DNA from: a bacterium
GTDB taxonomy: Bacteria > Zhuqueibacterota > Zhuqueibacteria > Residuimicrobiales > Krinioviventaceae
Length of the DNA stretch: 64,000 nt
Direction: 5' to 3'
Assembly (NCBI GenBank): GCA_963693055.1
Contig: OY843751.1
Span: 1,312,001-1,376,000, forward strand
Part shown: positions 28,957-42,263 of the stretch, one piece after another
Layout of the letters: the number at the start of each line of letters is the position of its first letter
Position numbering within the stretch: position 1 is the stretch's first letter
Notes under the pieces: generated by a model
What the model was told of the DNA's origin: nothing
Seen by the model: only the letters and a program-made list of their open reading frames with translations
Databases searched by the model: none
Made by a program: the position numbers and the translations under genes

Positions 28957-28990
28957 GAACGTGTTATTTTAGTCAGTATTGAGAGGAAAA

Positions 28991-31900
28991 ATGAAAAAAA
29001 TATATTCTATTCTGTTAATAGTTATTTTTCTTACAACAGGCCTTTATGCCGACGGCACCCAGCCGCCGGGTTCCGGCACATCTGATGTTCCTTATGAGGT
29101 ATCCACTCTGAACCATTTATTATGGATCAGTACCAATTCCGGTTCGTGGAGTGCCTGCTTTGAACAGACAGCAGATATCAATGCCTCAGCAACAGCCACC
29201 TGGAACAGTGACGGAGAAGGCGGTTATGAAGGCTTCTCCCCGATTGGGAAAATTCTTGACTATTTTGAAGGCTCATACGATGGTCAGGGATACGCAATAG
29301 AGGGTCTGTATATTAACCGGACCAGTGATTATGTTGGATTGTTTGGGGCTATTGAAGGTGGCTCTGTCGAAAACCTAATCCTGAAAAACGTAAATATTAC
29401 CGCAGAAGCGATGGTCGGCGGACTGGCTGGATACACTGTAGATGCAGTATTTACAAATTGCTCCGTCTCAGGGTCGGTTTCATGTATCAATTCGTATGTA
29501 GGTGGACTGATCGGAGACATAACGCTTTCGACCCAGATTAACGAATGCCGGTCATTATGCAGCGTTTCCGGTACCTTCAATGTAGGCGGGTTGGTTGGAT
29601 GTACTTATAACTCTACGGTTATTAAAAATAGTTACGCCCGGGGCAGTGTTGACGGTACTCTCAGCAGTGTTGGTGGACTGCTTGGATATAATTCGTATGG
29701 CTGCCAGGTTAACAATTGTTACGCCACAGGCAGCGTTTCCGGTGACAGCCAATATGGTGGCCTGGTGGGCGAAAATAATGGAACTGTGAGCAATAGTTTT
29801 TACGATCAGGAAACCACCGGGCAGGACGATACGGGCAAGGGCACACCGAAAACCACTGAGGAAATGAAAACACTTTATACCTTTACAAATGCTGGTTGGG
29901 ATTTTGATAACGAGACAACTAACGGAACAGATGATGTCTGGGATATCGATTATATCAACTCATCAAATATCGGTTACCCCTATCTGAGTTGGCAGGATGG
30001 CGCCACAGTCGCCCAGCCTTCAGGCCCTGACGGAAGCGGTACATCCAACGATCCTTACCAGATCAGTAACCTGACAGATCTCTGTTGGTTAAGCCAGAAC
30101 CCGTCAAGCTGGGACAAATATTTTATCCAGATTAATGATATTGATGCTTCCAGTACGAGTTCCTGGAGTGGAGGTTTTGGATTCTCCCCTATTGGGAACA
30201 ATAATGACTATTTTGAAGGCTCATACGATGGCCAGGGATACGCAATAGAAGGTTTGTATATTAACCGGTCCAGTAGTTATGTTGGATTGTTTGGGGATAT
30301 GATGGGTACAGGACCTGTAAAAAACCTGATCATGAGAAACGTAAATATTACCGGAGACACGTTTGTCGGCGGACTGGTTGGGCAACAAAATTACAAAGTT
30401 ATTACGAATTGTTCCGTTACAGGGTCGGTTTCAGGTGCCGGGTATGTAGGTGGAGTGGTTGGGCTCGAGCAGTATTCCGCCGAGGTTAACGAATGCCGGT
30501 CTTTATGCAGCGTATCCGGTACCTTCTATGTAGGCAGTCTGGTTGGAGGTGCTCGTTTCTCTGCGGTTATTAACAATAGTTACGCCCGGGGCAGTGTTGA
30601 CGGTACTAACAGCTATATTGGTGGACTGCTTGGAGGGAATGCTGATGGCTGCCAGGTTAACAATTGTTACGCCACAGGCAGCGTTTCCGGTGACAGCCAA
30701 GTTGGCGGCCTGGTGGGCGAAAATGAGGGAACGGTGAGCAATAGTTTTTATGACCAAATAACAACCGGGCAGGACGATACGGGTAAAGGCAGTCCCAAGA
30801 CAACAGCAGAAATGAAAGATTATACAACATTTATCAACGCCGGGTGGGACTATGTGGCGGAAACTGTTAATGGTTCAGATGATGATTGGGACCAGGACTG
30901 TTCTGAAAGTATTAATAACGGTTACCCCTACCTGAGCTGGCAGGACGGCGCTTCAGTTTCCCTCGCTGTTTTGTCAATTGTACCCTCGGCCGGGGATGGT
31001 TCCAGCGGTGATCCGTACCAAATTGCCACTATAAATAACCTGTACTGGCTTTCTCAAAACAGCGATCAATGGGGACAAAATTATATCCAGGTAGCTAACA
31101 TTGACGCGTCCGTTACCGGCAGCCTGGACAGCGGATCAGGTTTCTCAAGTATTGGCTCAGATGTAATAAACTTTAGCGGTACGTATGATGGTCAGGGGTA
31201 CAACATTGATAATTTATATATTAACCGGTCGGCCTCTAGTTTTATCGGTCTTTTCGGATATACAAACGGCGCCGGGATCAGCAATATTGCCCTGACCGGT
31301 GCAAACATAACCGGCGACCAGTATGTGGGTGGAATAGCCGGGGTAAGCTCTTCAGGCCAAATTGTCCAATGTTATACCAAAGGCAGTATCTCTGGTAATT
31401 ATAATGTGGGTGGTGTTAGCGGTTGTAATAACAATACTACAATACGCAACTGCTATTCCACGGCAGATATCTCCGGCACCACCAACACTGGTGGCCTGAC
31501 AGGACTAAATGGTGTCACATCAACCATTGATAAATGTTACGCCCGGGGCAGCGTCTCCGGTACCACCAACACCGGCGGACTGGTAGGGGCCAATTCCGCC
31601 ACCGTGAGCAATAGTTTTTTTGACAGCGAAACCACCGGACAAAGCGATAATAGCGGCAAAGGAGTTCCCAAATCCACGCAAGCCATGCAGACATTCAGCA
31701 CTTTTTTCGATGCCGGGTGGGACCTTGAGGTTGAGACAGGTAACGGCAATAATGATATCTGGGACATGGACCATACCGGCAGCTTTGGTGGCTGTTATCC
31801 TTATCTCAGTTGGCAGGATGCTTCAGATGTATCTATTCCGGCAAAACCGGCAGACGGTGATGGTTCCAGCGGTGCCCCGTACCAGATCGCAACCCTGAGT

Positions 31901-34333
31901 GATTTGGCCTGGATCAGTCTGTTCGCCAACAAATGGGGCCTGCACTTTATTCAAACCGCGAATATCGATGCGTCTACAACCGGCACCTGGTTTAACGGCT
32001 CCGGATTTTCACCCATCGGTAATAGTAGCACCGAATTTACCGGCTCTTATGACGGCCAGTTATATAGCATTTCCGGATTGACCATCAACCGGTCATCAAC
32101 CAGTGATGTCGGATTGTTTGGCCGTACCAGCGGCGCCATTCTGGAAAATATTGCAGTGATCAATGCGGATATTACCGGCAATGACGCTGTGGGTTGTCTG
32201 GTGGGTAACAATAGGGCCAGCTCCACAGTAAGCAAAAGTTATTCTACCGGTACTGTCAGCGGTAACATAAATGTTGGGGGTATTACGGGTTTGAACTATA
32301 ATGCCAGCCTGGCGCAGTGTTATGTTACGGCCGGTGTTAGCGGCGCCTCGGATGTGGGCGGACTGGTGGGCTCTAATTATATTTCCGCCACAACACAAAA
32401 ATGTTATGCCCGGGGTGACGTTACCGGCACATCCAACATTGGCGGACTTGCTGGCTCGAATGCAGGTGGAACGGTCAGCAGATGTTATGCAACCGGTGAG
32501 GTCTCGGGCTCATCCAATACCGGCGGACTGGTGGGTAATAACAATAATACAGTTACTGATAGCTTTTACGATGAATGGACCTCTGGGTGTAGCGATACCG
32601 GTAAGGGAGAACCTGTAAATACAGTATTTATGAAAATCCACTTGACGTTTACTGATGCCAATTGGGACTTTGCCACAGAGACCGCCAACGGCAGCAACGA
32701 TGTCTGGGACATGGATTACAACCAGGCAATAAACAGCGGTTACCCCTACCTGAGCTGGCAGGATGGCAGTAGTGTATCACTCAACTGGACAGCAGCAGCG
32801 CCTGCTGACGGTGAGGGCACCAGCGGCGATCCCTACCAGATTGCCAATCTGGAAAATCTTGCCTGGTTGTCACTGTATGCCAATCACTGGGACAAATATT
32901 ATATACAAACCGCAAACATTGATGCCTCGGCAACCAGTACCTGGAATGGAGGTGTAGGATTTTCACCCATCGGTAACAATTCTGTATGGTTTACCGGCAA
33001 TTACGACGGTCAATCTTACACTATCACCGGCCTGACCATCGATAGGTCAGGTACCAATAATATAGGTCTGTTTGGTTATACCAACGATGCCGTCATAAAA
33101 AATCTTGGGGTCTTGAGTGTTAATATTACCGGCAACAATAATGTGGGCAGTTTGATAGGCAATTTAAACGCCGGTACTGTAAAAAAGTGTTACTCTAACG
33201 GTAGTGTTTCCGGCAATGCCAAGGTTGGTGGTCTGGCAGGGTCCAACAACAGTGGGCTGCTTGGTCAGTGTTTTGCCAATACTGGTGTTTCGGGCGCTAC
33301 CGATATAGGTGGACTGGTGGGATACAACAACTATTCCTCTGATGTTAATAACTGTTATGCCAAAGGCAGTGTTTCCGGCACATCAAATGTGGGCGGTCTT
33401 GCCGGTTCAAATGTCTCATCAGCCATCCTGAATAAAAGTTATGCCAAAGGCAGTGTCTCCGGTTCTTCTGCCTCGGGTGGTCTGGTGGGTTTTAATGCTG
33501 GCGATGTGATTTTTTGCTTTTACGATTTAGAAACCACAGGGTGTAACGATACCGGCAAAGGCATACCCAAGTCTACAACAGATATGAAAATCCTGTCCAC
33601 ATTTACGGATGCGGACTGGGATTTTGAAGCAGAAACGGCTAACGGCAACAATGATTTTTGGGACCTGGATTGCAGTTGTTCCATAAACAATGGCTATCCC
33701 TTTCTCTCATGGTTAAATGGAGAAGATGTGGCCCTGCCCGTGGAATTGTACAGCTTTACAGCTGTTTGTGATAATGGCATAGTGATACTTGAATGGCAAA
33801 CCGCCAGTGAACGCGACAACCTGGGTTTTATACTTGAGCGACGAGATGAAAACAGCAACTGGCAGGAAATCAATTCTTACAAGATGTGTCAGACTCTGCA
33901 AGGGCAGGGAACAACTCCCTCGGAAACGGAATATTCCTACATTGATGATACGATTTCTCCCGGAAATACCTATACCTACCGTCTTTTGGATGTAAATACC
34001 AGTGGTGCGATAAATGTACTCGCATCTATATTGGTTAAAGTGGAATCTATTCCAACGACAACGCAATTATACCCTGCGTATCCGAATCCGTTCAATCCAT
34101 CTACAACCATCAGGTATGATCTGGCAAAAGACGGATATGTGAGTATTGCTGTATATGATGTGCTGGGCAGGCAGGTCAGGTCACTGTTTAACGGTGAGCA
34201 GGCTGCGGGGAGTTTTGATCTGCAATGGAACGGTCTCGATGATCTGGGTTGCCAGGTTTCGAGCGGTATTTATCTCGTTCGTTTTCAGACTGGTAATTTT
34301 ACCCGGACCCAAAAGGTTATGTTTGTAAAATAG
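28991..34333 (+). CDS. Large secreted GLUG-repeat protein with T9SS/FlgD-type C-terminal domain (paralog)
   Basis: Same architecture with five modules; LPVELYSF and YPNPFNP CTD. Confidence 0.88.
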   Translation: MKKIYSILLIVIFLTTGLYADGTQPPGSGTSDVPYEVSTLNHLLWISTNSGSWSACFEQTADINASATATWNSDGEGGYEGFSPIGKILDYFEGSYDGQGYAIEGLYINRTSDYVGLFGAIEGGSVENLILKNVNITAEAMVGGLAGYTVDAVFTNCSVSGSVSCINSYVGGLIGDITLSTQINECRSLCSVSGTFNVGGLVGCTYNSTVIKNSYARGSVDGTLSSVGGLLGYNSYGCQVNNCYATGSVSGDSQYGGLVGENNGTVSNSFYDQETTGQDDTGKGTPKTTEEMKTLYTFTNAGWDFDNETTNGTDDVWDIDYINSSNIGYPYLSWQDGATVAQPSGPDGSGTSNDPYQISNLTDLCWLSQNPSSWDKYFIQINDIDASSTSSWSGGFGFSPIGNNNDYFEGSYDGQGYAIEGLYINRSSSYVGLFGDMMGTGPVKNLIMRNVNITGDTFVGGLVGQQNYKVITNCSVTGSVSGAGYVGGVVGLEQYSAEVNECRSLCSVSGTFYVGSLVGGARFSAVINNSYARGSVDGTNSYIGGLLGGNADGCQVNNCYATGSVSGDSQVGGLVGENEGTVSNSFYDQITTGQDDTGKGSPKTTAEMKDYTTFINAGWDYVAETVNGSDDDWDQDCSESINNGYPYLSWQDGASVSLAVLSIVPSAGDGSSGDPYQIATINNLYWLSQNSDQWGQNYIQVANIDASVTGSLDSGSGFSSIGSDVINFSGTYDGQGYNIDNLYINRSASSFIGLFGYTNGAGISNIALTGANITGDQYVGGIAGVSSSGQIVQCYTKGSISGNYNVGGVSGCNNNTTIRNCYSTADISGTTNTGGLTGLNGVTSTIDKCYARGSVSGTTNTGGLVGANSATVSNSFFDSETTGQSDNSGKGVPKSTQAMQTFSTFFDAGWDLEVETGNGNNDIWDMDHTGSFGGCYPYLSWQDASDVSIPAKPADGDGSSGAPYQIATLSDLAWISLFANKWGLHFIQTANIDASTTGTWFNGSGFSPIGNSSTEFTGSYDGQLYSISGLTINRSSTSDVGLFGRTSGAILENIAVINADITGNDAVGCLVGNNRASSTVSKSYSTGTVSGNINVGGITGLNYNASLAQCYVTAGVSGASDVGGLVGSNYISATTQKCYARGDVTGTSNIGGLAGSNAGGTVSRCYATGEVSGSSNTGGLVGNNNNTVTDSFYDEWTSGCSDTGKGEPVNTVFMKIHLTFTDANWDFATETANGSNDVWDMDYNQAINSGYPYLSWQDGSSVSLNWTAAAPADGEGTSGDPYQIANLENLAWLSLYANHWDKYYIQTANIDASATSTWNGGVGFSPIGNNSVWFTGNYDGQSYTITGLTIDRSGTNNIGLFGYTNDAVIKNLGVLSVNITGNNNVGSLIGNLNAGTVKKCYSNGSVSGNAKVGGLAGSNNSGLLGQCFANTGVSGATDIGGLVGYNNYSSDVNNCYAKGSVSGTSNVGGLAGSNVSSAILNKSYAKGSVSGSSASGGLVGFNAGDVIFCFYDLETTGCNDTGKGIPKSTTDMKILSTFTDADWDFEAETANGNNDFWDLDCSCSINNGYPFLSWLNGEDVALPVELYSFTAVCDNGIVILEWQTASERDNLGFILERRDENSNWQEINSYKMCQTLQGQGTTPSETEYSYIDDTISPGNTYTYRLLDVNTSGAINVLASILVKVESIPTTTQLYPAYPNPFNPSTTIRYDLAKDGYVSIAVYDVLGRQVRSLFNGEQAAGSFDLQWNGLDDLGCQVSSGIYLVRFQTGNFTRTQKVMFVK

Positions 34334-34458
34334 TATCATATGACCAGAGGAGAAAAAGAAATTTATAAAACCCCCTAAAAATACAACGGAGCGTCAGATC
34401 ATTAATAAATTTGGTGATCTGTCATTCTGAAAGTAATAAAAGGGAAATATAAAAGCAA

Positions 34459-35283
34459 CTAATTGTTCTTTGAAAGATTCAACTGACTCCTTTGATTTTT
34501 AATTTTATCAGGCAAAAGATCAACATATTGTTGTATGACACGTTTGGAAAGTCTTGCCAGCTGGCTGATTTGATCAAGGTTTTTAATGTCATGCTTCCAA
34601 AGTAATTCAACACGATGGTAATCTTTGATATACCTGTCAACCGCTTCGTTGCTGTGTTTGGTTTTCAAAGCGATTTCGGGAGTGAGATATCCCTCAAGAT
34701 ACAGAGTGATAATTTCGCGTTTATGAGTAATAGCGCCGGAAAGATCATGGATGTTGCCACGCGTTGGTAAGAGATGCCCTTCTTTTTGGATTTCATTTAC
34801 ATATTTACTGACAACGGCATCACAGACACCGAGTAACATAGCCAGGTCAAGTTGAGTAAGCAGAGCACCTTGATCAAAAGCTTCATCAACCCAACGTTTG
34901 AGGCGTCTTTTCCTTAAAGTTTTGGAATCAAAACCATGCGCGATATGAGAAGTATCCTGATCAGTAATGAAAGAGAGGACAACGGGTTTCATTCGGGTAG
35001 CGGCAATACTTTTTCCGCGTTTGGGGTATTCATCGACAGGAACAGCCATCCAGACGAGTTGCCCATAGTGAATATGGTGCAAGTCATCATCAATAGAGGA
35101 GACAAGGAAATAGTCATCAATGATTTTAAGGATATCATCAATGATGGCATTGGCAGTGATGGCTCCTTTGTCATAGCCATAGCTATTCAAAAAGTTGTAC
35201 AGTAGTAACTGCTTGAGATCTTTATCTTTAAGTCGTCTCATTTTTTTGAGTTGAATTTGTTCTTTAGTCAAAGGTTTACTCAT
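34459..35283 (-). CDS. DUF1670-family protein, B type
   Basis: EAFDQGALLTQLDLAMLL, PTRGNIHDL...THK, HS...RY; ATG 35283 with GGAGG RBS; frame stays open upstream to 35337. Confidence 0.8.
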   Translation of the reverse strand: MSKPLTKEQIQLKKMRRLKDKDLKQLLLYNFLNSYGYDKGAITANAIIDDILKIIDDYFLVSSIDDDLHHIHYGQLVWMAVPVDEYPKRGKSIAATRMKPVVLSFITDQDTSHIAHGFDSKTLRKRRLKRWVDEAFDQGALLTQLDLAMLLGVCDAVVSKYVNEIQKEGHLLPTRGNIHDLSGAITHKREIITLYLEGYLTPEIALKTKHSNEAVDRYIKDYHRVELLWKHDIKNLDQISQLARLSKRVIQQYVDLLPDKIKNQRSQLNLSKNN

Positions 35284-36115
35284 TTTCTTTGCCTCCTGAT
35301 AGATGTTGAGGAATGGATTTTTTTTTCGCGTCGCCACCAGGTTCCGCAGGAGATAACAGATCGTTTAATCGCGTATTGTTTTGTTGAAGATAGGTTTGGT
35401 AGAGTTGGATATACTCGCGCACCAGGCGGTCGGATTTCTTTGCAATGAGTCGAATCTGGTTCGGAGAGAAATTTTCCTTGTATAAAAGGGCGATCTGCAT
35501 AAAGTCAGCGAGGTAACGTTTGATGCTGGTTTCAGAATGATTGGTTTTTTGTTCTATTTCTGAAAAGGTATAACCTTTAAGATACAGATCAATAATGATG
35601 GTTTTATGAGACAGTCCGGGACCCATGTCATGTTTCATACCTCGTGTCATGATAAACATACCGTGATGACGGAGATGATAAATGTCACGTTTAACAGTGG
35701 CCGGACTGGTGGTTAAAAGCATTGCCAGGTCTTCATAGCTGAGTAAAGCACCCTGATCATAGGCTTGTCGAGTCAGACGGGCGATCCGGTGTCGTCTAAG
35801 TCCGGCAAGGCCATAATTAGCCAGGGCTTGCAGATCTGTATTAAAGTCAATTAGTTTGAGACGGACCGTAAGCTTTCGGGTTAATCTGATATGTTTGCCG
35901 GCTGGTTCTTCAGCGGCAACAGCTTCATAAGCGACTTCACCTCCTGATAATGAAATGTTGGAATGTTCCTGAAAGTATTGGTCAAATTGTTGATAGTAAG
36001 CTTCGGCAATAATAGGAGTCAAATTGAAATCCTGAGACAGTTTTTGGACAATAGCGTTTTTAGCTGTCTTGGATTCGAGTCTTTTTAAACCATAATTATT
36101 TTTAACATCTGCCAT
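35276..36115 (-). CDS. DUF1670-family protein, A type
   Basis: QAYDQGALLSYEDLAMLL, TRGMKHDMGPGLSHK, HS...RY; AAGGAG RBS. Confidence 0.8.
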   Translation of the reverse strand: MADVKNNYGLKRLESKTAKNAIVQKLSQDFNLTPIIAEAYYQQFDQYFQEHSNISLSGGEVAYEAVAAEEPAGKHIRLTRKLTVRLKLIDFNTDLQALANYGLAGLRRHRIARLTRQAYDQGALLSYEDLAMLLTTSPATVKRDIYHLRHHGMFIMTRGMKHDMGPGLSHKTIIIDLYLKGYTFSEIEQKTNHSETSIKRYLADFMQIALLYKENFSPNQIRLIAKKSDRLVREYIQLYQTYLQQNNTRLNDLLSPAEPGGDAKKKSIPQHLSGGKENE

Positions 36116-36215
36116 AAGAATCTCCTTATTTCTGTTTTTATTAAAACAATGATTCCTATGGTCATATGCACTAAACTTTAAATAATTATATTTTGATAAA
36201 GGTAAGGGGCAAAGC

Positions 36216-36255
36216 GTGCCAGGGATACTTATTGCATCACTGGCACTTGTTTTAT
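36216..36255. terminator. Stem-loop, probable ancestral terminator between the convergent flanking genes
   Basis: GTGCCAG...CTGGCAC stem with T-rich tail, in the 95-bp spacer between the two DUF1670 units. Confidence 0.5.
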
Positions 36256-36399
36256 TTACGTTTAGGAAATATTTCCGGTAGGTTGTTTTTAAGATTAGAA
36301 CATTTATTCATTTTTTCAGCTAACGAAAGGAGCTCGTAGGGCGACTGGAGTTAGCTGAAAAACAATGACAACCTAACCTATTAATTCCTTTTCAAATTT

Positions 36400-37215
36400 T
36401 CAAGTTTTCTTTTGTATTAAATCTGAATGATAATGATAAACCAGATCACGATATTGTAATATTGTACTCCGTCCTAATCCGGTTATTCTTACCATTTCCA
36501 TTAAATTAAAACCTTTTTCCAATAATGATTTTACGTTCTTGTAACTCTTTAAATACCGACTCGTTGATTCAATTGTGTGATTTGTAATCCGGGCGATATC
36601 CGGTTCGGGATATCCCTGCTCGTACAAATCTATAATTGCGGCTTTATGCGTCGGCTTACTGCCCTGATCCAGCATCATTCCTTTAGTCGGCAATATATCA
36701 TCATGCGTTTCATGATAAATTGTCATATACCGACCAATAGTGTTTAATGAGCGATTCAACAATACACTGAGTTCTGCACCTGTCAACCAGCCGCCCTGTT
36801 CTGCCGCACTCTTGCATAACCGCGCCATTACTTTAATATCCCGTTCTGTTTGTTTTTCATAATTAGCACTGCCATCTTTTGGGGGATAAGAATAATGGCT
36901 TTTGATACGATTGTCAATATCCGCATCTGTTACCAACGGTAGCACAACTGTCTGAACCTCATAATCTTCCGCTTTTGTGCCATAACTTGGCTTTCGGTTT
37001 GTCGCTTTGGTTGTCCGCCAGATAATCTGACCAAAACTTTTCTTTTCCAGCTCTGGATAAAATTCATTTTGCAATGCGACAATATCTTCTGCAATCATCC
37101 GGATGACTTTGTGGCTTCCCAGCATTTTATAATTTTCTTCCAGTAATCGAATAATCGCATTTTGAAAGCTACGCTTAGCTATTGATTCATAACGATTTAA
37201 AGGCTTAGTCTTCAT
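36400..37215 (-). CDS. DUF1670-family protein, B type
   Basis: GQIIW, SAAEQGGWLTGAELSVLL, PTKGMMLDQG...THK, HT...RY. Confidence 0.78.
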   Translation of the reverse strand: MKTKPLNRYESIAKRSFQNAIIRLLEENYKMLGSHKVIRMIAEDIVALQNEFYPELEKKSFGQIIWRTTKATNRKPSYGTKAEDYEVQTVVLPLVTDADIDNRIKSHYSYPPKDGSANYEKQTERDIKVMARLCKSAAEQGGWLTGAELSVLLNRSLNTIGRYMTIYHETHDDILPTKGMMLDQGSKPTHKAAIIDLYEQGYPEPDIARITNHTIESTSRYLKSYKNVKSLLEKGFNLMEMVRITGLGRSTILQYRDLVYHYHSDLIQKKT

Positions 37216-38032
37216 CGATCCCCTCCTTGGTTTGTTTTTTTTTCGAGGGGTATAACACCTTTAATTGCTCCAATAACTCTACATAGATCGGCGGCCATTT
37301 GTCACCCTGTTTATGATGCTCAAAAATATCCAGGTACTCACGGGTCAAACGCTCACTTTGGCCTAATAACCGACTGATCTCTTTGATATCCTGCATACCA
37401 TGATTCAGTAATAACAACAGCCTGCCAAAGCTGCACACATATCGTTTTATTGAAAACGCGCTATGACGACTTTTACGAATAATTGCATCGTATGTGTCTC
37501 CCTGCAAATACAGTTCAATAATGTGGCTTTTGTGTGACAAGCTCCGACCGATGTCATGGTCTGTTCCGCGCGTGTGAATAAAGTTGCCATCAGTCTGCAA
37601 AGACTTTATATCCTGGCGTACAGTGCGGCTCGTAACCTGGAGGATCCGGGCCAAATCCTCTTGTGTCAAAGAACCTTCCTGATCCCAGGCTTCTTCGGTC
37701 AATCGTAAGACCTTTAACTGGCGCAGTGCCTTGGGACCGCTTTCTTTTAATACATTTAAATCTTCTACACCGGCATCCAGTGTTAACTCTACTTCTTTCA
37801 ATTCCTGCTCACCCAGGGGCTTGCCATGTTTTGCCTTGGTGGATGCGCAGATATATTTTATTTTACCAACTGTCTGGGGAACCTCGCCAAATAAACACTG
37901 CTTGGCTAAATCCAATATCCCTTTACTTTCTGCCGGTGATAATTCAAATTCTTTTCGTAAAGAATTGATGAATACTTGCTCGGGTGTTTTTTCTAATATC
38001 CTGTCATACAAACTACTACGAGTATTGTACAT
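37205..38032 (-). CDS. DUF1670-family protein, A type
   Basis: EEAWDQEGSLTQEDLARIL, TRGTDHDIGRSLSHK, HS...RY; GGAGG RBS. Confidence 0.8.
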   Translation of the reverse strand: MYNTRSSLYDRILEKTPEQVFINSLRKEFELSPAESKGILDLAKQCLFGEVPQTVGKIKYICASTKAKHGKPLGEQELKEVELTLDAGVEDLNVLKESGPKALRQLKVLRLTEEAWDQEGSLTQEDLARILQVTSRTVRQDIKSLQTDGNFIHTRGTDHDIGRSLSHKSHIIELYLQGDTYDAIIRKSRHSAFSIKRYVCSFGRLLLLLNHGMQDIKEISRLLGQSERLTREYLDIFEHHKQGDKWPPIYVELLEQLKVLYPSKKKQTKEGIDED

Positions 38033-38088
38033 TTGTCCTCCGGTAAGTTTTGAAATCTTTGTTTGACTTCCGGTTACTTCTAGTAAAT

Positions 38089-38117
38089 ACTATATGAAAT
38101 AACCGCCTTTTTTCCAA
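38089..38117 (-). promoter_or_regulatory. Candidate sigma70 promoter inside the right end of element 2
   Basis: Minus strand TTGGAA-N17-TATAGT upstream of the 38032 start. Confidence 0.35.
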
Positions 38118-38137
38118 AACCTACCGGAAAATTTTCC

Positions 38138-40645
38138 TTATTTCACAAACAAAGCTTTTCTGATTTTAATACAATTTCCTGTTTCCAGTTTGTAAAAATA
38201 TATGCCGCTTGAAAGATCCTCCGCATTCATCATGTAGGTGTATACTCCCGCTCCTTTTTGTTCGTTCACAAGTTCACGAACTTTTTCCCCCAATACATTA
38301 TACAGGGTCAGTTTTACATTTGATTTGTAGGGTACAGCATAGTTGATTGTTGTTGTCGGGTTAAAGGGATTGGGATAGTTTTGCTCTAATCTAAACCGAG
38401 TGGGGATTGCCGTATCCTTCTCTCTGGAATCGATGCGAGTATAAACAGGAGGCTCTTCCGGTACCCAGTCATAGCTGAAACGAGGATTAGATGTTTTTGC
38501 AAAAATGTTTTCAAGGGTATATTCGGCAGCTTCTTCATCGGATAGTTGTCTGGATATAGGAGTTCTATATGTTGTATCCGCACCTTCACCGTAACAGTTG
38601 TATTCTGCGTATAATGCCGGTGGCACATTCCAGGCCGACCATCCCACTAGTGAAAGAGCTGCAGGCTCTTGCGTATTGATGAATACCGTGCGTGGCGCTC
38701 CCTGCCAGGGGCGACCCAGCACAAAAGTATAAATCTCTTTGCCATCAAACCCAATATTATCATTACTAATGATACAATCTTTGAATACATAACCGAATTT
38801 GGAATCTGCTTCTGTGGCTGCTGCTGTCAGGGCTCCACCGTTTCGGTTGATGTGAATTTCGCAGCTATCAAACAGCACAATATTACGTCCGAAAATAAAA
38901 TCAACCGATCCTTCAATGTAGCAGTTTTTCATATAGGTCCTGCCTGTACCCCGGCCACCCCAGGTATAGTAAGTGTCCTGATATCCGAGCAGTCTGCAGT
39001 TATAATAGCTTTGCCGGTCTCCGTTTACACGTAGAGCAACCGCCTGTTGGTCTTCAAAACTACCGTCATTCATTACAGTGTTCTGAAAAGTAATATTAAC
39101 TGCTGTAAAGTCATCCGCATCAATTGCTGTGCTGTACGAATTGGAGGTGCCGCCTGCTTTGCCAGCATAATCATCAAATGTGAGTATGGTACTGTCCGCA
39201 TTTTCACCCCGAAGCGTTACATTGAGCTTTTCTCTGTCAAGTAGCAGCTTTTCGTAATATACTCCATTTTTGATATAAATATAATAATTACCGGTATATT
39301 TGTCCGGAATGTTATCAAACGCTTGCTGAACAGTAGTATAATCTCCATTGCCCGAATGGTCAACCACTTTATAGACATCCGGTTGGGGAGCCAGAGTAGT
39401 GAATTCGCGGACCGATCCATAACCGGTCCCGGCGCTATTGGTAGCATACGCACAGACGTAATAGGTTGTGGTTTCCTGCAAGGGGTAGATCAAGCTGTTA
39501 AAGGCTGACATGCCGTCACCTTCTATGTTATAACTGTCATCCAGAGTAGGGGAGCCGGTAGTATTCCACACCAGACCTTTCGCGGTAATTTCGGCGCCGC
39601 CCCAGTCAATAACACTGCCGCCGCATTCAGCGGTTTCTACACGTACATTAGAAACACCGGCAGTAAATACCCAGGGAACATCTAATGAATCAAGGGTTTT
39701 GAATGTAATTTCTTCTCCATAAGCAGTACCTGCGGCATTTATAGCATATGCTTTGGCAAAATATTCTGTACCGGGAGTTAGGCCCGTCAAATGACTTGTA
39801 AAGGCACCAGAGCCGGTTCCATCTGATGTGTGATTGTTTTCGATAGTGGGGGAACCTGTGGTATTCCAAACAACACCACGTTGAGTAATTTGTGCGCCAC
39901 CATCAGATTCAATATCACCTCCGCAGGTGCAATAAGTGGTGGAAACAAATGTAGCATCTTCCGTAGAGAGACTGGCTAAATCGTATTCAATTTCACCTTC
40001 CACAGTGCCACTAATTTTGACATCTTTTAATAAAAGATATTTACCGGTAAGGCCGCTGGTTTGATTGTGGACCCAGGGATAGACTCGCAGGTAAAAAGTT
40101 CTATCGCCAGGGATCTGTACATTTAAATTCAAGGATACTGTATGCAACGAGTCGGCACGTAATATATATCCGTTGCTTTCAAGCACAAGAGAAGCAGGGA
40201 TTTCTTCAAATGTATTGAAATCAGGATCCTGTGAGTAAAGAATACGGGCTTTAAGATAGTTGGTATAGTCCGCTCCAATTTTTAAAGAAGTGTTTTTGAT
40301 TGTGAGATCTGTGCCGCTCATTGCGGATACGGCAAACTGTGTATAAACCGATTCAATGATGTCGGTTTGATTCTCCGGCCATTGTGTGGCTCCACCCGGG
40401 GGACGGTTGTCGCTGCGTTGGCTGTTTTTGGCACCGGTGTAACTATTTACGCGCATACCAACGAATTGCTGATCCACTGCATCTATAGGGCCGGAGGTCA
40501 AAACGGTTAGTCCGCTACCTTCTGTCGCTGGATCACTCAACTCCCACAATGCATATGCAGAGGTGGTTTCATTTACCTCTTGTCCAAAACTATTACCGGT
40601 AATGAAAAGAGTACAAAATAACAAAAGAAATGTTTGTCGATTCAT
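38138..40645 (-). CDS. Secreted pectinesterase (CE8) with FN3-like domains and T9SS-type CTD
   Basis: GDYTTVQQA, QAVAL, GYQDT, GSVDFIFG, LGRPW motifs; two CGG...RGVVW repeats; NYPNPFNP. Confidence 0.92.
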   Translation of the reverse strand: MNRQTFLLLFCTLFITGNSFGQEVNETTSAYALWELSDPATEGSGLTVLTSGPIDAVDQQFVGMRVNSYTGAKNSQRSDNRPPGGATQWPENQTDIIESVYTQFAVSAMSGTDLTIKNTSLKIGADYTNYLKARILYSQDPDFNTFEEIPASLVLESNGYILRADSLHTVSLNLNVQIPGDRTFYLRVYPWVHNQTSGLTGKYLLLKDVKISGTVEGEIEYDLASLSTEDATFVSTTYCTCGGDIESDGGAQITQRGVVWNTTGSPTIENNHTSDGTGSGAFTSHLTGLTPGTEYFAKAYAINAAGTAYGEEITFKTLDSLDVPWVFTAGVSNVRVETAECGGSVIDWGGAEITAKGLVWNTTGSPTLDDSYNIEGDGMSAFNSLIYPLQETTTYYVCAYATNSAGTGYGSVREFTTLAPQPDVYKVVDHSGNGDYTTVQQAFDNIPDKYTGNYYIYIKNGVYYEKLLLDREKLNVTLRGENADSTILTFDDYAGKAGGTSNSYSTAIDADDFTAVNITFQNTVMNDGSFEDQQAVALRVNGDRQSYYNCRLLGYQDTYYTWGGRGTGRTYMKNCYIEGSVDFIFGRNIVLFDSCEIHINRNGGALTAAATEADSKFGYVFKDCIISNDNIGFDGKEIYTFVLGRPWQGAPRTVFINTQEPAALSLVGWSAWNVPPALYAEYNCYGEGADTTYRTPISRQLSDEEAAEYTLENIFAKTSNPRFSYDWVPEEPPVYTRIDSREKDTAIPTRFRLEQNYPNPFNPTTTINYAVPYKSNVKLTLYNVLGEKVRELVNEQKGAGVYTYMMNAEDLSSGIYFYKLETGNCIKIRKALFVK

Positions 40646-40838: not shown

Positions 40839-40863
40839 TGGTTCCATAAGTTTTTTATAATTA

Positions 40864-42075
40864 GAAACATCTGAAATATTGGATTTTTTCATATTGAACT
40901 AATAAATTGAGTTCAATTTTCCAAAGAGAATGAAATATTTATAAAATCTATAACATTTAAAATTGTTCTTTGACAAAATTTACTATCATTACTCTAATAC
41001 ATAGGTTATATACCTACGAAATGGCTCAAGTGGTTAATGTAACCATACGCCTGATATTATAAACCCATGCTGCAATCACAAATTCAAAACGATTTCGGCC
41101 CATATCATAATAACTGCACCGATCATAATCTAATACTTGCTTCATAAAGGCAAACGGTCTTTCAACTGCATTCCGAACTTTAGATAATTGCTTATTTCTT
41201 TTTACCTGCTTTGATGTCAAATTTCGGTTTCTATATCCTTTATCAAGAATGCCGCAATAGACTCCTTTGCCTCGCAGGTTGCACTTGCGGGCTTTGTTCG
41301 TGTAACCTTTATCTGCGAACACCGCATTTTCTTTTTCTGTTATCAGATCCGGAAAAAGATTTGTGTCGTGAATACTTGCGCTGGTAAACTCTACAGAATG
41401 AATAATATCACTGTCCAAATCTGTACCAATATGGCCTTTGTAGCCATAATGCGTTTTGCCACGTTTCTTTGTGAAATCTGCATCACGATCACGCTTGCTT
41501 CCTGGTTTCGCTTGTGCTTGTTTTATAGTTGCATCAACAAGTGTTCCTTTGCCAACGATCAGACCCATTTTTTCAAGCTGTTTGTTGAATTGCCGGAACA
41601 GTATTTTATCAAGACCAAGACGGGCAAATAGTTCACGATATCGGCAGATAGTGGTTTCGTCAGGGATTGCATCCGCACTGGTCAGTTCCAGAAACAATTG
41701 AAAACTACGTCGATCCGCAATCTCTTCTTCCAGGCGAGGATCGGATAAACCATAGATACGTTGTAATAAAAAACAACGAACAATAACTAACAAATCAAAT
41801 GACGGCTTGCCTGCATTTGATTTTCTGGTTTTTGATTGTTCAATACGTTCTTCAATGGGTTCAAGTAAATTTTGCCAATCAATTTTTTCTTTGATAATTT
41901 CCAGAGCTTGTTTGCTTTGGGTTTTTATATGCTTTTTGAAATTTTCATTTGCTGCTGTGGTAAACAAGTCTTCATTGTTTATTCTATTGCGACCCATGTA
42001 AAACTCCAGTTTTTTTTATCATACAGCAAATTAGTAAATTATTACCTTTGATTCTAATAATATTTCAGAGGTTTC
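40864..42075 (-). mobile_element. IS5-family insertion sequence (1212 bp)
   Basis: TIR GAAAC(A/C)TCTGAAATATT, 16/17 match; AATTA duplicated at 40859-40863 and 42076-42080. Confidence 0.9.
41026..41997 (-). CDS. IS5-family transposase
   Basis: LSDPRLEE, IPDETT, VDAT, GYKGH, ADKGY, R..VERPF. Confidence 0.93.
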   Translation of the reverse strand: MGRNRINNEDLFTTAANENFKKHIKTQSKQALEIIKEKIDWQNLLEPIEERIEQSKTRKSNAGKPSFDLLVIVRCFLLQRIYGLSDPRLEEEIADRRSFQLFLELTSADAIPDETTICRYRELFARLGLDKILFRQFNKQLEKMGLIVGKGTLVDATIKQAQAKPGSKRDRDADFTKKRGKTHYGYKGHIGTDLDSDIIHSVEFTSASIHDTNLFPDLITEKENAVFADKGYTNKARKCNLRGKGVYCGILDKGYRNRNLTSKQVKRNKQLSKVRNAVERPFAFMKQVLDYDRCSYYDMGRNRFEFVIAAWVYNIRRMVTLTT

Positions 42076-42263
42076 AATTAAATTATTCTGAGACTGTGGG
42101 ACTATTATTGATTGGCGTTTGATGGCAAGAGTGTAGAGCTGGAATTTGGTTGGTAATACATTTTCCCCCTGTTAATCGATACAAATTAAAAATTATAAAA
42201 AATCTTAATGATTAGGTTTCACTTTCCGACTTTGTAGAAAGGATAAAATATGGGAATCATAAA

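Follow-up and report, generated by a model that had tools for sequence, protein, structure and literature searches.

In a 64,000-nt stretch of a bacterial genome assigned to the Krinioviventaceae (assembly GCA_963693055.1, contig OY843751.1, positions 1,312,001 to 1,376,000; hereafter the window), two convergent genes are separated by four minus-strand open reading frames (ORFs) that form two neighboring pairs of DUF1670 genes. This arrangement raises the question of whether each pair constitutes a mobile element and, if so, which enzyme moves it. A first inspection of the letters alone (the sequence-only reading) had proposed two independent insertions of an autonomous element of the size of an insertion sequence (IS), with the DUF1670 proteins as its mobility enzyme. 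As detailed below, the two units, which we term E1 and E2, are real mobile elements that moved recently and independently.

Copies, empty site and ends of E1 and E2

The genome, a single 6.5-Mb contig, contains 26 matches to PF07900 (DUF1670) that resolve into 13 adjacent pairs. Alignment against the genome (blastn) assigned six pairs to E1, with the five other copies being 99.68–100% identical, and seven to E2, whose six other copies comprise four at 99.74–99.79%, one at 98.7% and one at 92.7% identity. Both frames are open in 13/13 copies, the copies sit at unrelated loci, and their alignments end within a few nucleotides of inverted repeats. Public contigs of the same organism contain E1 as a separate unitig of 1854 bp (34328–36181) at a depth of 60 vs. 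~10 in the flanks (~6-fold), and pieces of E2 at a depth of 44–46 vs. ~8. Finally, the orthologous locus of a same-genus genome (G001) possesses both flanking genes (83–88% identical) and the spacer between them, without E1 and E2. This empty site features a single AAATAA ... TTATTT and reads ...ATGTTTGTT AAATAA, followed by a 66-bp spacer with hairpin and then TTATTT CACAAAC.... The six and seven near-identical copies, the orthologous empty site and the alignment breaks near the repeats bear out the proposed pair of independent insertions of IS-sized elements, and all three situations named beforehand as speaking against mobility (no extra copies, no empty alleles, alignments unbroken at the repeats) proved absent. 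Near-identical multicopy occurrence, sharp ends, an empty site and inverted repeats near the ends are traits of insertion sequences in general; a transposase of a recognized class, likewise such a trait, was not found among the Pfam and NCBIfam matches at E ≤ 1, which are to helix-turn-helix (HTH) families only.

Within each unit, the only genes are those for two DUF1670 proteins. All on the minus strand, these are B1 (34459..35337; 292 aa from the listed GTG start, while its homologues start at the ATG of MSKPLT), A1 (35276..36115; 279 aa), B2 (36400..37215; 271 aa) and A2 (37205..38032; 275 aa). Their family identity, previously read from translations, was confirmed by the PF07900 hidden Markov model (E-values of 2.1e-62 for B1, 9.8e-59 for A1, 4.9e-48 for B2 and 6.6e-47 for A2), with scores of 160–211 bits against a gathering cut-off of 25 bits; the remaining Pfam and NCBIfam matches of the four proteins are to HTH families only. 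Proteins of E1 and E2 are 29–38% identical (A1 and A2 are mutual best matches at 34%) and the two repeat sets are unrelated, in agreement with the strong divergence noted earlier. With separate insertions added to these two observations, the earlier statement that the locus is no recent tandem duplication holds as well, and neither do the adjacent units form a composite element: they lie side by side because two convergent sorting-tail genes provide two targets 68 bp apart, each hit by a different element. The G+C content of the units is 0.33–0.45, compared with 0.45–0.52 in the left flanking gene.

Both inverted repeats are located exactly where the sequence-only reading had placed them, with 14/15 matching positions in E1 (34337–34351 and 36154–36168) and 19/21 in E2 (36264–36284 and 38118–38138). 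Among 40 mononucleotide shuffles of 34200–38300, none reached a 19/21 repeat and 10 reached a 14/15 repeat. On its own, the E1 repeat is thus close to what chance would give; it is accepted as real because it is retained at the ends of all six copies. More generally, the inverted repeats of E1 and E2 are retained in all copies and in relatives. Junction alignment of all copies places the true tips 4–11 nt outside the repeats (4 nt on the gene side, 7–11 nt on the far side), and the repeats are therefore subterminal. The two repeat-closed units described earlier consequently stand, with their ends moved outward. E1 (about 34330..36179, minus strand, 1850 bp) runs from ATAGTATCATATG to CACTAAACTTT and contains a gene-proximal repeat on its B side (CATATGACCAGAGGA, 34337..34351) and a distal end composed of the repeat TCCTATGGTCATATG and the tip CACTAAACTTT (36154..36179). 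E2 (about 36258..38141, minus strand, 1884 bp) runs from ACGTTTAGGAAATATTTCC to GGAAAATTTTCCTTAT; perfect palindromes are embedded in both its distal repeat (36264..36284; palindrome GGAAATATTTCC at 36265–36276) and its gene-proximal repeat (38118..38138; palindrome GGAAAATTTTCC at 38126–38137).

The chance level of the E1 repeat would suit the view that these are ordinary regulator genes, duplicated by recombination and flanked by fortuitous repeats, as would the names of some homologues ('biotin operon repressor' or 'transcriptional regulator'). This view is refuted by the 13 sharp-ended copies at unrelated loci, the empty orthologous site, the ~6-fold depth and a patchy distribution in which 28 of 151 sampled genomes of the host phylum carry the family, nearly always as adjacent pairs; we assign it a negligible probability.

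Solo remnants of E1 or E2 ends were found at genome positions near 1730450, 5975651, 3844072, 5684746 and 4718446 and at 333437–333467, with two doubtful cases (5106381, 1108962). They comprise gene-side stretches of 11–45 nt located behind the stop codons of T9SS tail genes and one solo E2 far end that adjoins a truncated tail gene, and they represent scars left when older insertions were lost by deletion. Apart from the 13 copies and a few such solo ends, a search allowing up to three mismatches found no E1 or E2 end motif in the genome. In two sequencing runs (X1 and X2), summed contig depth rises to ~235–270 at 35911–36057 and 37234–37380, and loose contig ends at 36026 and 37302 run into unrelated sequence. 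Short stretches of A1 and A2 apparently also occur in other, more abundant DNA of the sample.

Insertion into the last codon of sorting-tail genes

Inspection of the insertion sites revealed that 11 of the 13 insertions abut the last codon of a gene, and all 11 gene tails scored above the cut-off of TIGR04183, the type A sorting domain of the type IX secretion system (T9SS). Such targets are plentiful: the genome encodes at least 150 T9SS tails (150 of 264 candidates scored), and a simple motif count returned 205 tails, of which 147 have Lys as the last residue and 126 end with AAATA. The elements insert on the AA of the last Lys codon (AAR); this AA, embedded in AARTAR, is the core of the target. 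Orientation is fixed, as the B-side end points toward the gene in 6/6 E1 copies and the A-side end in 7/7 E2 copies. With the gene drawn at the left and element boundaries marked by slashes, the junctions read gene-AA / ATAG TAT CATATGACCAGAGGA ... TCCTATGGTCATATG CACTAAACTTT / AA ATAA for E1 and gene-AA / ATAA GGAAAATTTTCC GGTAGGTT ... AACCTACC GGAAATATTTCC TAAACGT / AA ATAA for E2, and CTAAAC is common to the far tips of both.

The two exceptions are both E1 copies. One, at ~509.7 kb, sits within the AAATA that an E2 copy has regenerated at its far end, giving the order gene-AAATA-E2-AAATA-E1-AAATA; the other is inserted at atatatAAA/aaccg, where no reading frame ends.

In the window, the left target gene (28979..34333, plus strand), whose final Lys codon spans 34328–34330 and whose stop codon spans 34331–34333, encodes a GLUG-repeat protein of 1784 aa with a type A T9SS sorting tail. 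Comparison with the empty site assigns 34330–34333 (A TAG) to E1, while the AA of the final Lys codon (34328..34329) is the insertion point and recurs as a second copy at 36180–36181, a placement supported by the junctions of all six copies, the variant junctions and the empty site. The displaced original ATAA (36182–36185) opens the segment 36182..36252, which continues with the original intergenic spacer and its terminator-like hairpin (36216..36246). The sequence-only reading had expected such a hairpin, rightly, within a spacer of ~110 bp; judged by the same-genus empty site, the spacer measures 68 bp (36185–36252). E2 is bordered by a duplicated TT (= AA; 36256–36257 and 38142–38143) and adjoins the right target gene (38138..40645, minus strand), encoding a pectinesterase with a T9SS sorting tail, whose stop codon (38138–38140) and third base of the last Lys codon (38141) now come from E2. 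In general, E1 brings A TAG and E2 brings A TAA, and the third codon base and stop that belonged to the gene are pushed to the far end. Since the element provides replacements for both, the target gene remains intact, as can be seen from the sequence itself.

Regarding the length of any target duplication, the flanking 5-mers are informative where they are unequal. In these cases the gene-side 5-mer is always AAATA and the far-side 5-mer is AAGTA, AAAAA or AAGTG, i.e. the target's own Lys codon and stop; this applies to the E1 copies at 58 kb and 6088 kb, the E2 copy at 2266 kb, two related loci (L109 and L049) and at least seven Poribacteria copies. Because both 5-mers would be equal after a true 5-bp duplication, these variant junctions rule out a duplication of AAATA, and repair of a heteroduplex is disfavored because mixed outcomes would then be expected. 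The simplest reading of the junction sequences is that only AA (0–2 nt) would be shared or duplicated on insertion. A shared AA is compatible with a 2-bp crossover, a 2-nt target duplication or insertion without duplication. The unequal junctions confine exchange to the first 2–3 nt, in disagreement with the 6–8 bp overlap of tyrosine recombinases.

Among side observations on the surroundings, the left gene product (28979–34333) combines many GLUG motifs and a region resembling the N-terminal part of M26 peptidases with its T9SS tail, and several paralogous tail genes lie close by in the genome. To the right, an IS5-like element (40856–42077) specifies a protein of 323 aa in which DDE_Tnp_1 (E 1.6e-27) and DUF772 are recognized. 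The element has ~10 more full-length genome copies at 96–100% identity, one of them interrupted, and its ends are unrelated to those of E1 and E2.

Predicted recoding between the paired genes and spread of the family

In both elements, gene B lies in the +1 frame relative to gene A, and the two overlap near a run of nine adenines (A9). This run encodes KKK (residues 264–266), begins at nt 789 of both A1 (35318..35326, minus strand; T9 on the plus strand) and A2 (37235..37243, minus strand), and is kept in 13/13 copies. One A fewer or two more (A8 or A11) would merge A and B into a single frame of 551 aa in E1 and 543 aa in E2. Similar arrangements recur among 80 related loci, of which 72 have both frames; an A run of at least six is present at the overlap in 67 of these 72. 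Loci with a +1 offset carry A9 (20 loci) or A7 (4), whereas those with a −1 offset carry A6–8 followed by G (42) or A10 (1). In Poribacteria, the A6–8-plus-G motif forms the in-phase heptamer A_AAA_AAG. In one locus (L084), an extra G creates a natural open frame of 586 codons, and natural proteins with two (about 500–545 aa) or three (about 930–950 aa) DUF1670 modules exist. A passage in PMC1088944 describes conserved 9A runs at the orfA/orfB overlap of insertion sequences as giving rise to the fusion protein via transcriptional slippage. Given an A9 at the same place in both elements and A_AAA_AAG in distant relatives, the sequences indicate IS-style recoding, by which the A–B pair appears to follow the gene logic of IS-type transposases.

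Inspection of 14 longer DUF1670 proteins revealed extra DUF1670 or HTH modules only, with one exception (P0254, 400 aa), in which one DUF1670 module is joined to a DnaG-type CHC2 zinc ribbon. Four proteins of 930–952 aa (P0126, P0128, P0136 and P0144) consist of three DUF1670 modules and nothing else recognizable.

Searches for homologues yielded 981 clusters for A1 (E ≤ 0.001) and 1027 representative clusters for B1 (exhaustive HMMER). Among the 120 A1 matches listed, homologues were 73–100% identical, many residing on contigs of 1–3 kb, and were named 'DUF1670 domain-containing', 'hypothetical' or after regulators, none as transposase. The 80 related loci derive from Calditrichota, Ignavibacteria, metagenome-assembled genomes labeled Bacteroidetes, Cloacimonadota and Poribacteria, often with several copies per genome at 98–100% identity; an archaeal control genome also gave a Pfam DUF1670 match. 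No paper naming DUF1670 or PF07900 was found in the literature library searched, and topical searches brought up nothing relevant among the listings and the opening lines of abstracts.

Comparison of related elements revealed that ends are kept together with their own protein pair across relatives. E1-type termini (TATTT-AAAGTTTAG-GTCATATGACC ... GGTCATTTGATAC-TATTT) are retained across phyla, namely in Ignavibacteriales, Melioribacteraceae and Poribacteria. In E2-type elements, the 27-nt distal terminus is kept in 4/4 and the proximal one in 3/4 cases despite overall identities of 73–90%, implying that the ends are under stronger constraint than the genes. One Poribacteria genome (CBDBEE loci) harbors copies within a palindrome resembling repetitive extragenic palindromic (REP) elements rather than in a gene tail. 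Two loci of one Poribacteria genome (L081 and L083) share an identical 40-nt far-side flank and have different gene-side flanks, pointing either to copies that recombined with each other or to duplication of a segment. Within the 3′ non-coding part of Poribacteria E1-type elements (L056, L068, L088 and similar), a σ70-like TTGAC-N17-TA(T/C)ACT motif, spotted by eye rather than by a scan, is directed out through the gene-side end; judging from its position, it would read into gene A in a circular form.

The non-coding parts were also considered as a source of guide RNA. An Rfam search of both strands at E ≤ 1 gave no match in 34200–38300. A hairpin 3′ of B2 (36317..36360, minus strand) is kept in 5/6 E2-type elements that are otherwise ~74% identical, with an almost invariant core (AGCTAAC...GTTAGCT) and an outer stem in which six pairs show compensatory changes. 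Neither strand has a U-tract after the hairpin, and the end motif recurs next to it as an internal copy (AGGTTAGGTTGT). The 3′ non-coding part of E1-type elements (38–229 nt) has no common structure, and Ignavibacteria copies resemble plain terminators. With the hairpin restricted to E2-type elements and the E1-type non-coding part unconserved, a family-wide guide RNA is not supported.

Candidate enzymes and comparison with known systems

What, then, moves E1 and E2? On balance, we favor the DUF1670 pair as the element's own recombinase. Of the earlier proposal of an autonomous element with DUF1670 as mobility enzyme, the mobility has been borne out. The enzyme role is consistent with the DUF1670 genes being the only ones present, with ends that are not shared with other elements and track the protein pairs, and with the IS-like recoding, and it stays a prediction, as the searches turned up neither a catalytic fold nor a catalytic motif.

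Several results weigh against an enzymatic role of DUF1670. Pfam and NCBIfam at E ≤ 1 contained no DDE, HUH, serine-recombinase or IS110 family, only HTH, just as the sequence-only reading had noticed no such motifs; Pfam likewise gave no hit to a Phage_integrase-type catalytic domain (R..HxxR..Y) of tyrosine recombinases. An AlphaFold2 model of B1 (67 sequences; mean local confidence (pLDDT) 84.7, predicted template-modeling score (pTM) 0.61) consists of four N-terminal helices and a two-stranded hairpin (8–133), which contributes the only two β strands of the model, followed by a winged HTH (137–200) and further HTH modules (202–250 and 254–292). A sequence profile search of the PDB found only a designed HTH repeat (8vd6). 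With the whole of B1, Foldseek gave nothing at E ≤ 0.001, its best rows being MntR, Pax and Tc3-type DNA-binding domains, while the best VIA-align match was the winged HTH of NiaR (Z 6.2, root-mean-square deviation 1.9, 57 residues aligned), followed by HTHs of sigma-4, LuxR and resolvases (Z 5–6) and the CAP domain of Topo VI-A (Z 5.7). Folded alone, the N-terminal part reached a pLDDT of 83.3; its 136 residues had no Foldseek match at E ≤ 0.001 (best E 1.3) and a best VIA-align Z of 4.5. Profile comparison (hhalign) returned probabilities of 0.3% for six tyrosine-recombinase domains of the host, 0.1% for the host resolvase and 0.2% for the DDE transposase of the IS5-like element in the window. 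Furthermore, the A–B fusion and the slippage are predicted from sequence rather than observed, and neither a circle junction nor an excision product or empty allele was present in the contigs of three runs of one sample, from which rare forms cannot be revealed.

Further searches gave a similar picture: the conserved columns of the 67 sequences contain no H-hydrophobic-H motif, PHROGs and PADLOC returned weak HTH-level matches only, and clusters of the ESM Atlas without PF07900 were HTH only (best score 0.81). B2 resembles resolvases through its C-terminal HTH, which matches the HTH_7 family (E 2.9e-7), and this match concerns the DNA-binding part only. That the fold searches listed no catalytic family does not by itself exclude one.

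Residue conservation offers candidates for an active site. Across the 67 sequences (about 30% identity; B1 numbering), H205, H228 and Y236 are invariant, followed by K206 and S/T204 (66 each), R148 and Y271 (65 each), D198 (64), Q156 (63), D164 (60), R193 (59), R235 (58) and H197 (49). Some of these residues (R235-Y236, Y271, D164 and R193-G194) sit at what we take to be standard signature positions of HTH and winged-HTH domains and may hence be structural rather than catalytic, a further point against an enzyme. This leaves D198, S/T204, H205, H228 and, in part, H197 as family-specific residues and, as judged from conservation, the best candidates for an active or metal site. A tyrosine nucleophile (Y236 or Y271) was considered and downgraded, as hhalign to tyrosine recombinases was null; both residues presumably provide the core aromatic of the recognition helix in HTH domains (a signature of the S..V.RW type).

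Given that every recognizable protein part is an HTH and no catalytic fold was found, the DUF1670 proteins might instead be site-selecting DNA-binding factors that recruit a host enzyme such as a Xer-type tyrosine recombinase, a topoisomerase or a nuclease. The host does encode seven tyrosine-recombinase matches and one resolvase, and elements that borrow XerCD exist (IMEX elements). However, at least five phyla contain active members of the family with no genes but these two, which would call for a universal helper; the targets are many different gene tails and not a single dif-like site; D198, H205 and H228 are near-invariant, beyond what binding of unrelated ends would need; and orfA/orfB recoding is, in the published passages that treat it, typical of transposase genes. 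We therefore rate recruitment of a host enzyme as rather unlikely, if the most serious competitor to catalysis by DUF1670 itself.

Mobilization in trans by the transposase of another transposon, with E1 and E2 as non-autonomous passengers, was likewise weighed, e.g. by a DDE enzyme as in two-protein PIF/Harbinger systems. The genome does carry classical insertion sequences, including the IS5-like DDE element with its ~10 further full-length copies, and systems of a DNA-binding component plus a transposase exist, as a preprint describes (bioRxiv 10.64898/2026.05.26.728016). Yet no other element of the genome bears E1 or E2 ends, even with up to three mismatches, and these ends are unrelated to one another while sharing target and junction geometry and tracking their own protein pairs, making such a passenger role improbable.

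Returning to DUF1670 as the element's recombinase, we propose the following sequence of events. RNA-polymerase slippage on A9 (replaced in distant relatives by −1 ribosomal frameshifting at A_AAA_AAG) would produce, as the active protein, an A–B fusion of ~545 aa, with A and B alone acting as regulators as in IS1 and IS3. Recognition of the palindrome-bearing ends, and of the conserved DNA encoding the sorting tail, would fall to the three HTH modules in each half, and strand exchange would occur at AA, probably via an excised or circular form with the ends joined across AA. The predicted joined-end junctions are ...CTAAACTTT-AA-ATAGTATC... for E1 and ...CCTAAACGT-AA-ATAAGGAAAA... for E2.

E1 and E2 resemble several known systems without matching any of them. 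With IS1 and IS3 they share two overlapping frames, a slippery run, a predicted A–B fusion, a similar size (~1.9 kb), inverted repeats near the ends and multicopy occurrence; however, their orfB is a paralogue of orfA and not a DDE domain, there is no RNase-H-like fold, the elements of the window would join their frames by a +1 shift or by losing one A instead of by a −1 shift, and insertion is strictly site- and orientation-specific with ~2 nt shared. The latter is reminiscent of IS110/IS1111 elements, which are site- and orientation-specific, have subterminal repeats and create little or no target duplication, and some DUF1670 relatives also lie inside REP-like palindromes. In contrast to that family, E1 and E2 have no DEDD/RuvC-like match at E ≤ 1, no Rfam match and, in E1-type elements, no conservation of the 3′ non-coding region.

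A dinucleotide target, a 2-nt duplication and bipartite HTH binding are features of the IS630/Tc1-mariner group, and Tc3 and Pax are among the weak fold hits; the core of E1 and E2, however, is AA in AARTAR and not TA, orientation is fixed and there is no DDE/D domain. For serine recombinases (IS607, resolvases), a 2-nt crossover core would fit the junctions and B2 has its HTH_7 match, whereas DUF1670 contains no resolvase catalytic domain and its predicted fold lacks a β-α-β core. Tn7 inserts downstream of glmS at attTn7, guided by TnsD, with a 5-bp duplication and by means of TnsABC. Like Tn7/TnsD, E1 and E2 are directed to a conserved 3′ end of coding sequence and keep the gene functional, but they enter the last codon of a whole gene family (at least 150 tails) and possess two small HTH proteins only. 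Finally, XerC and XerD are two paralogous DNA-binding proteins with the same conserved residues. The co-encoded DUF1670 paralogues likewise keep the same residues, and A and B might each serve one of the two unlike ends, yet they have no profile relation to tyrosine recombinases (0.3%) and the junctions do not fit a 6–8 bp overlap.

To our knowledge, well-studied prokaryotic insertion sequences all use DDE, DEDD, HUH, serine or tyrosine enzymes, and here an abundant, recently active, multi-phylum element carries none of these known enzyme classes. As an element, it behaves like an IS; what is new concerns the mobility machinery, and is conditional on the predicted catalytic role. Tentatively, and short of an even chance in our judgment, DUF1670 would represent a new class of transposase or recombinase that is built of HTH modules only, works as a recoded A–B tandem or an A/B hetero-oligomer with a His/Asp-centered active site, recognizes the conserved coding DNA shared by an entire family of sorting-tail genes, and integrates in one orientation with single-base precision while restoring the last codon and stop. 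Such a compact, gene-preserving machine would be present in at least five phyla. Should the DUF1670 pair prove to be the enzyme, this would establish a new catalytic class and give a domain of unknown function a function, while precise, orientation-fixed and gene-sparing insertion at a short coding motif would be of interest to genome engineers. If, on the other hand, a host enzyme is borrowed, the elements would parasitize housekeeping machinery in a new way. In both cases, these insertions explain assembly breaks at the ends of secreted-protein genes in T9SS-bearing bacteria.

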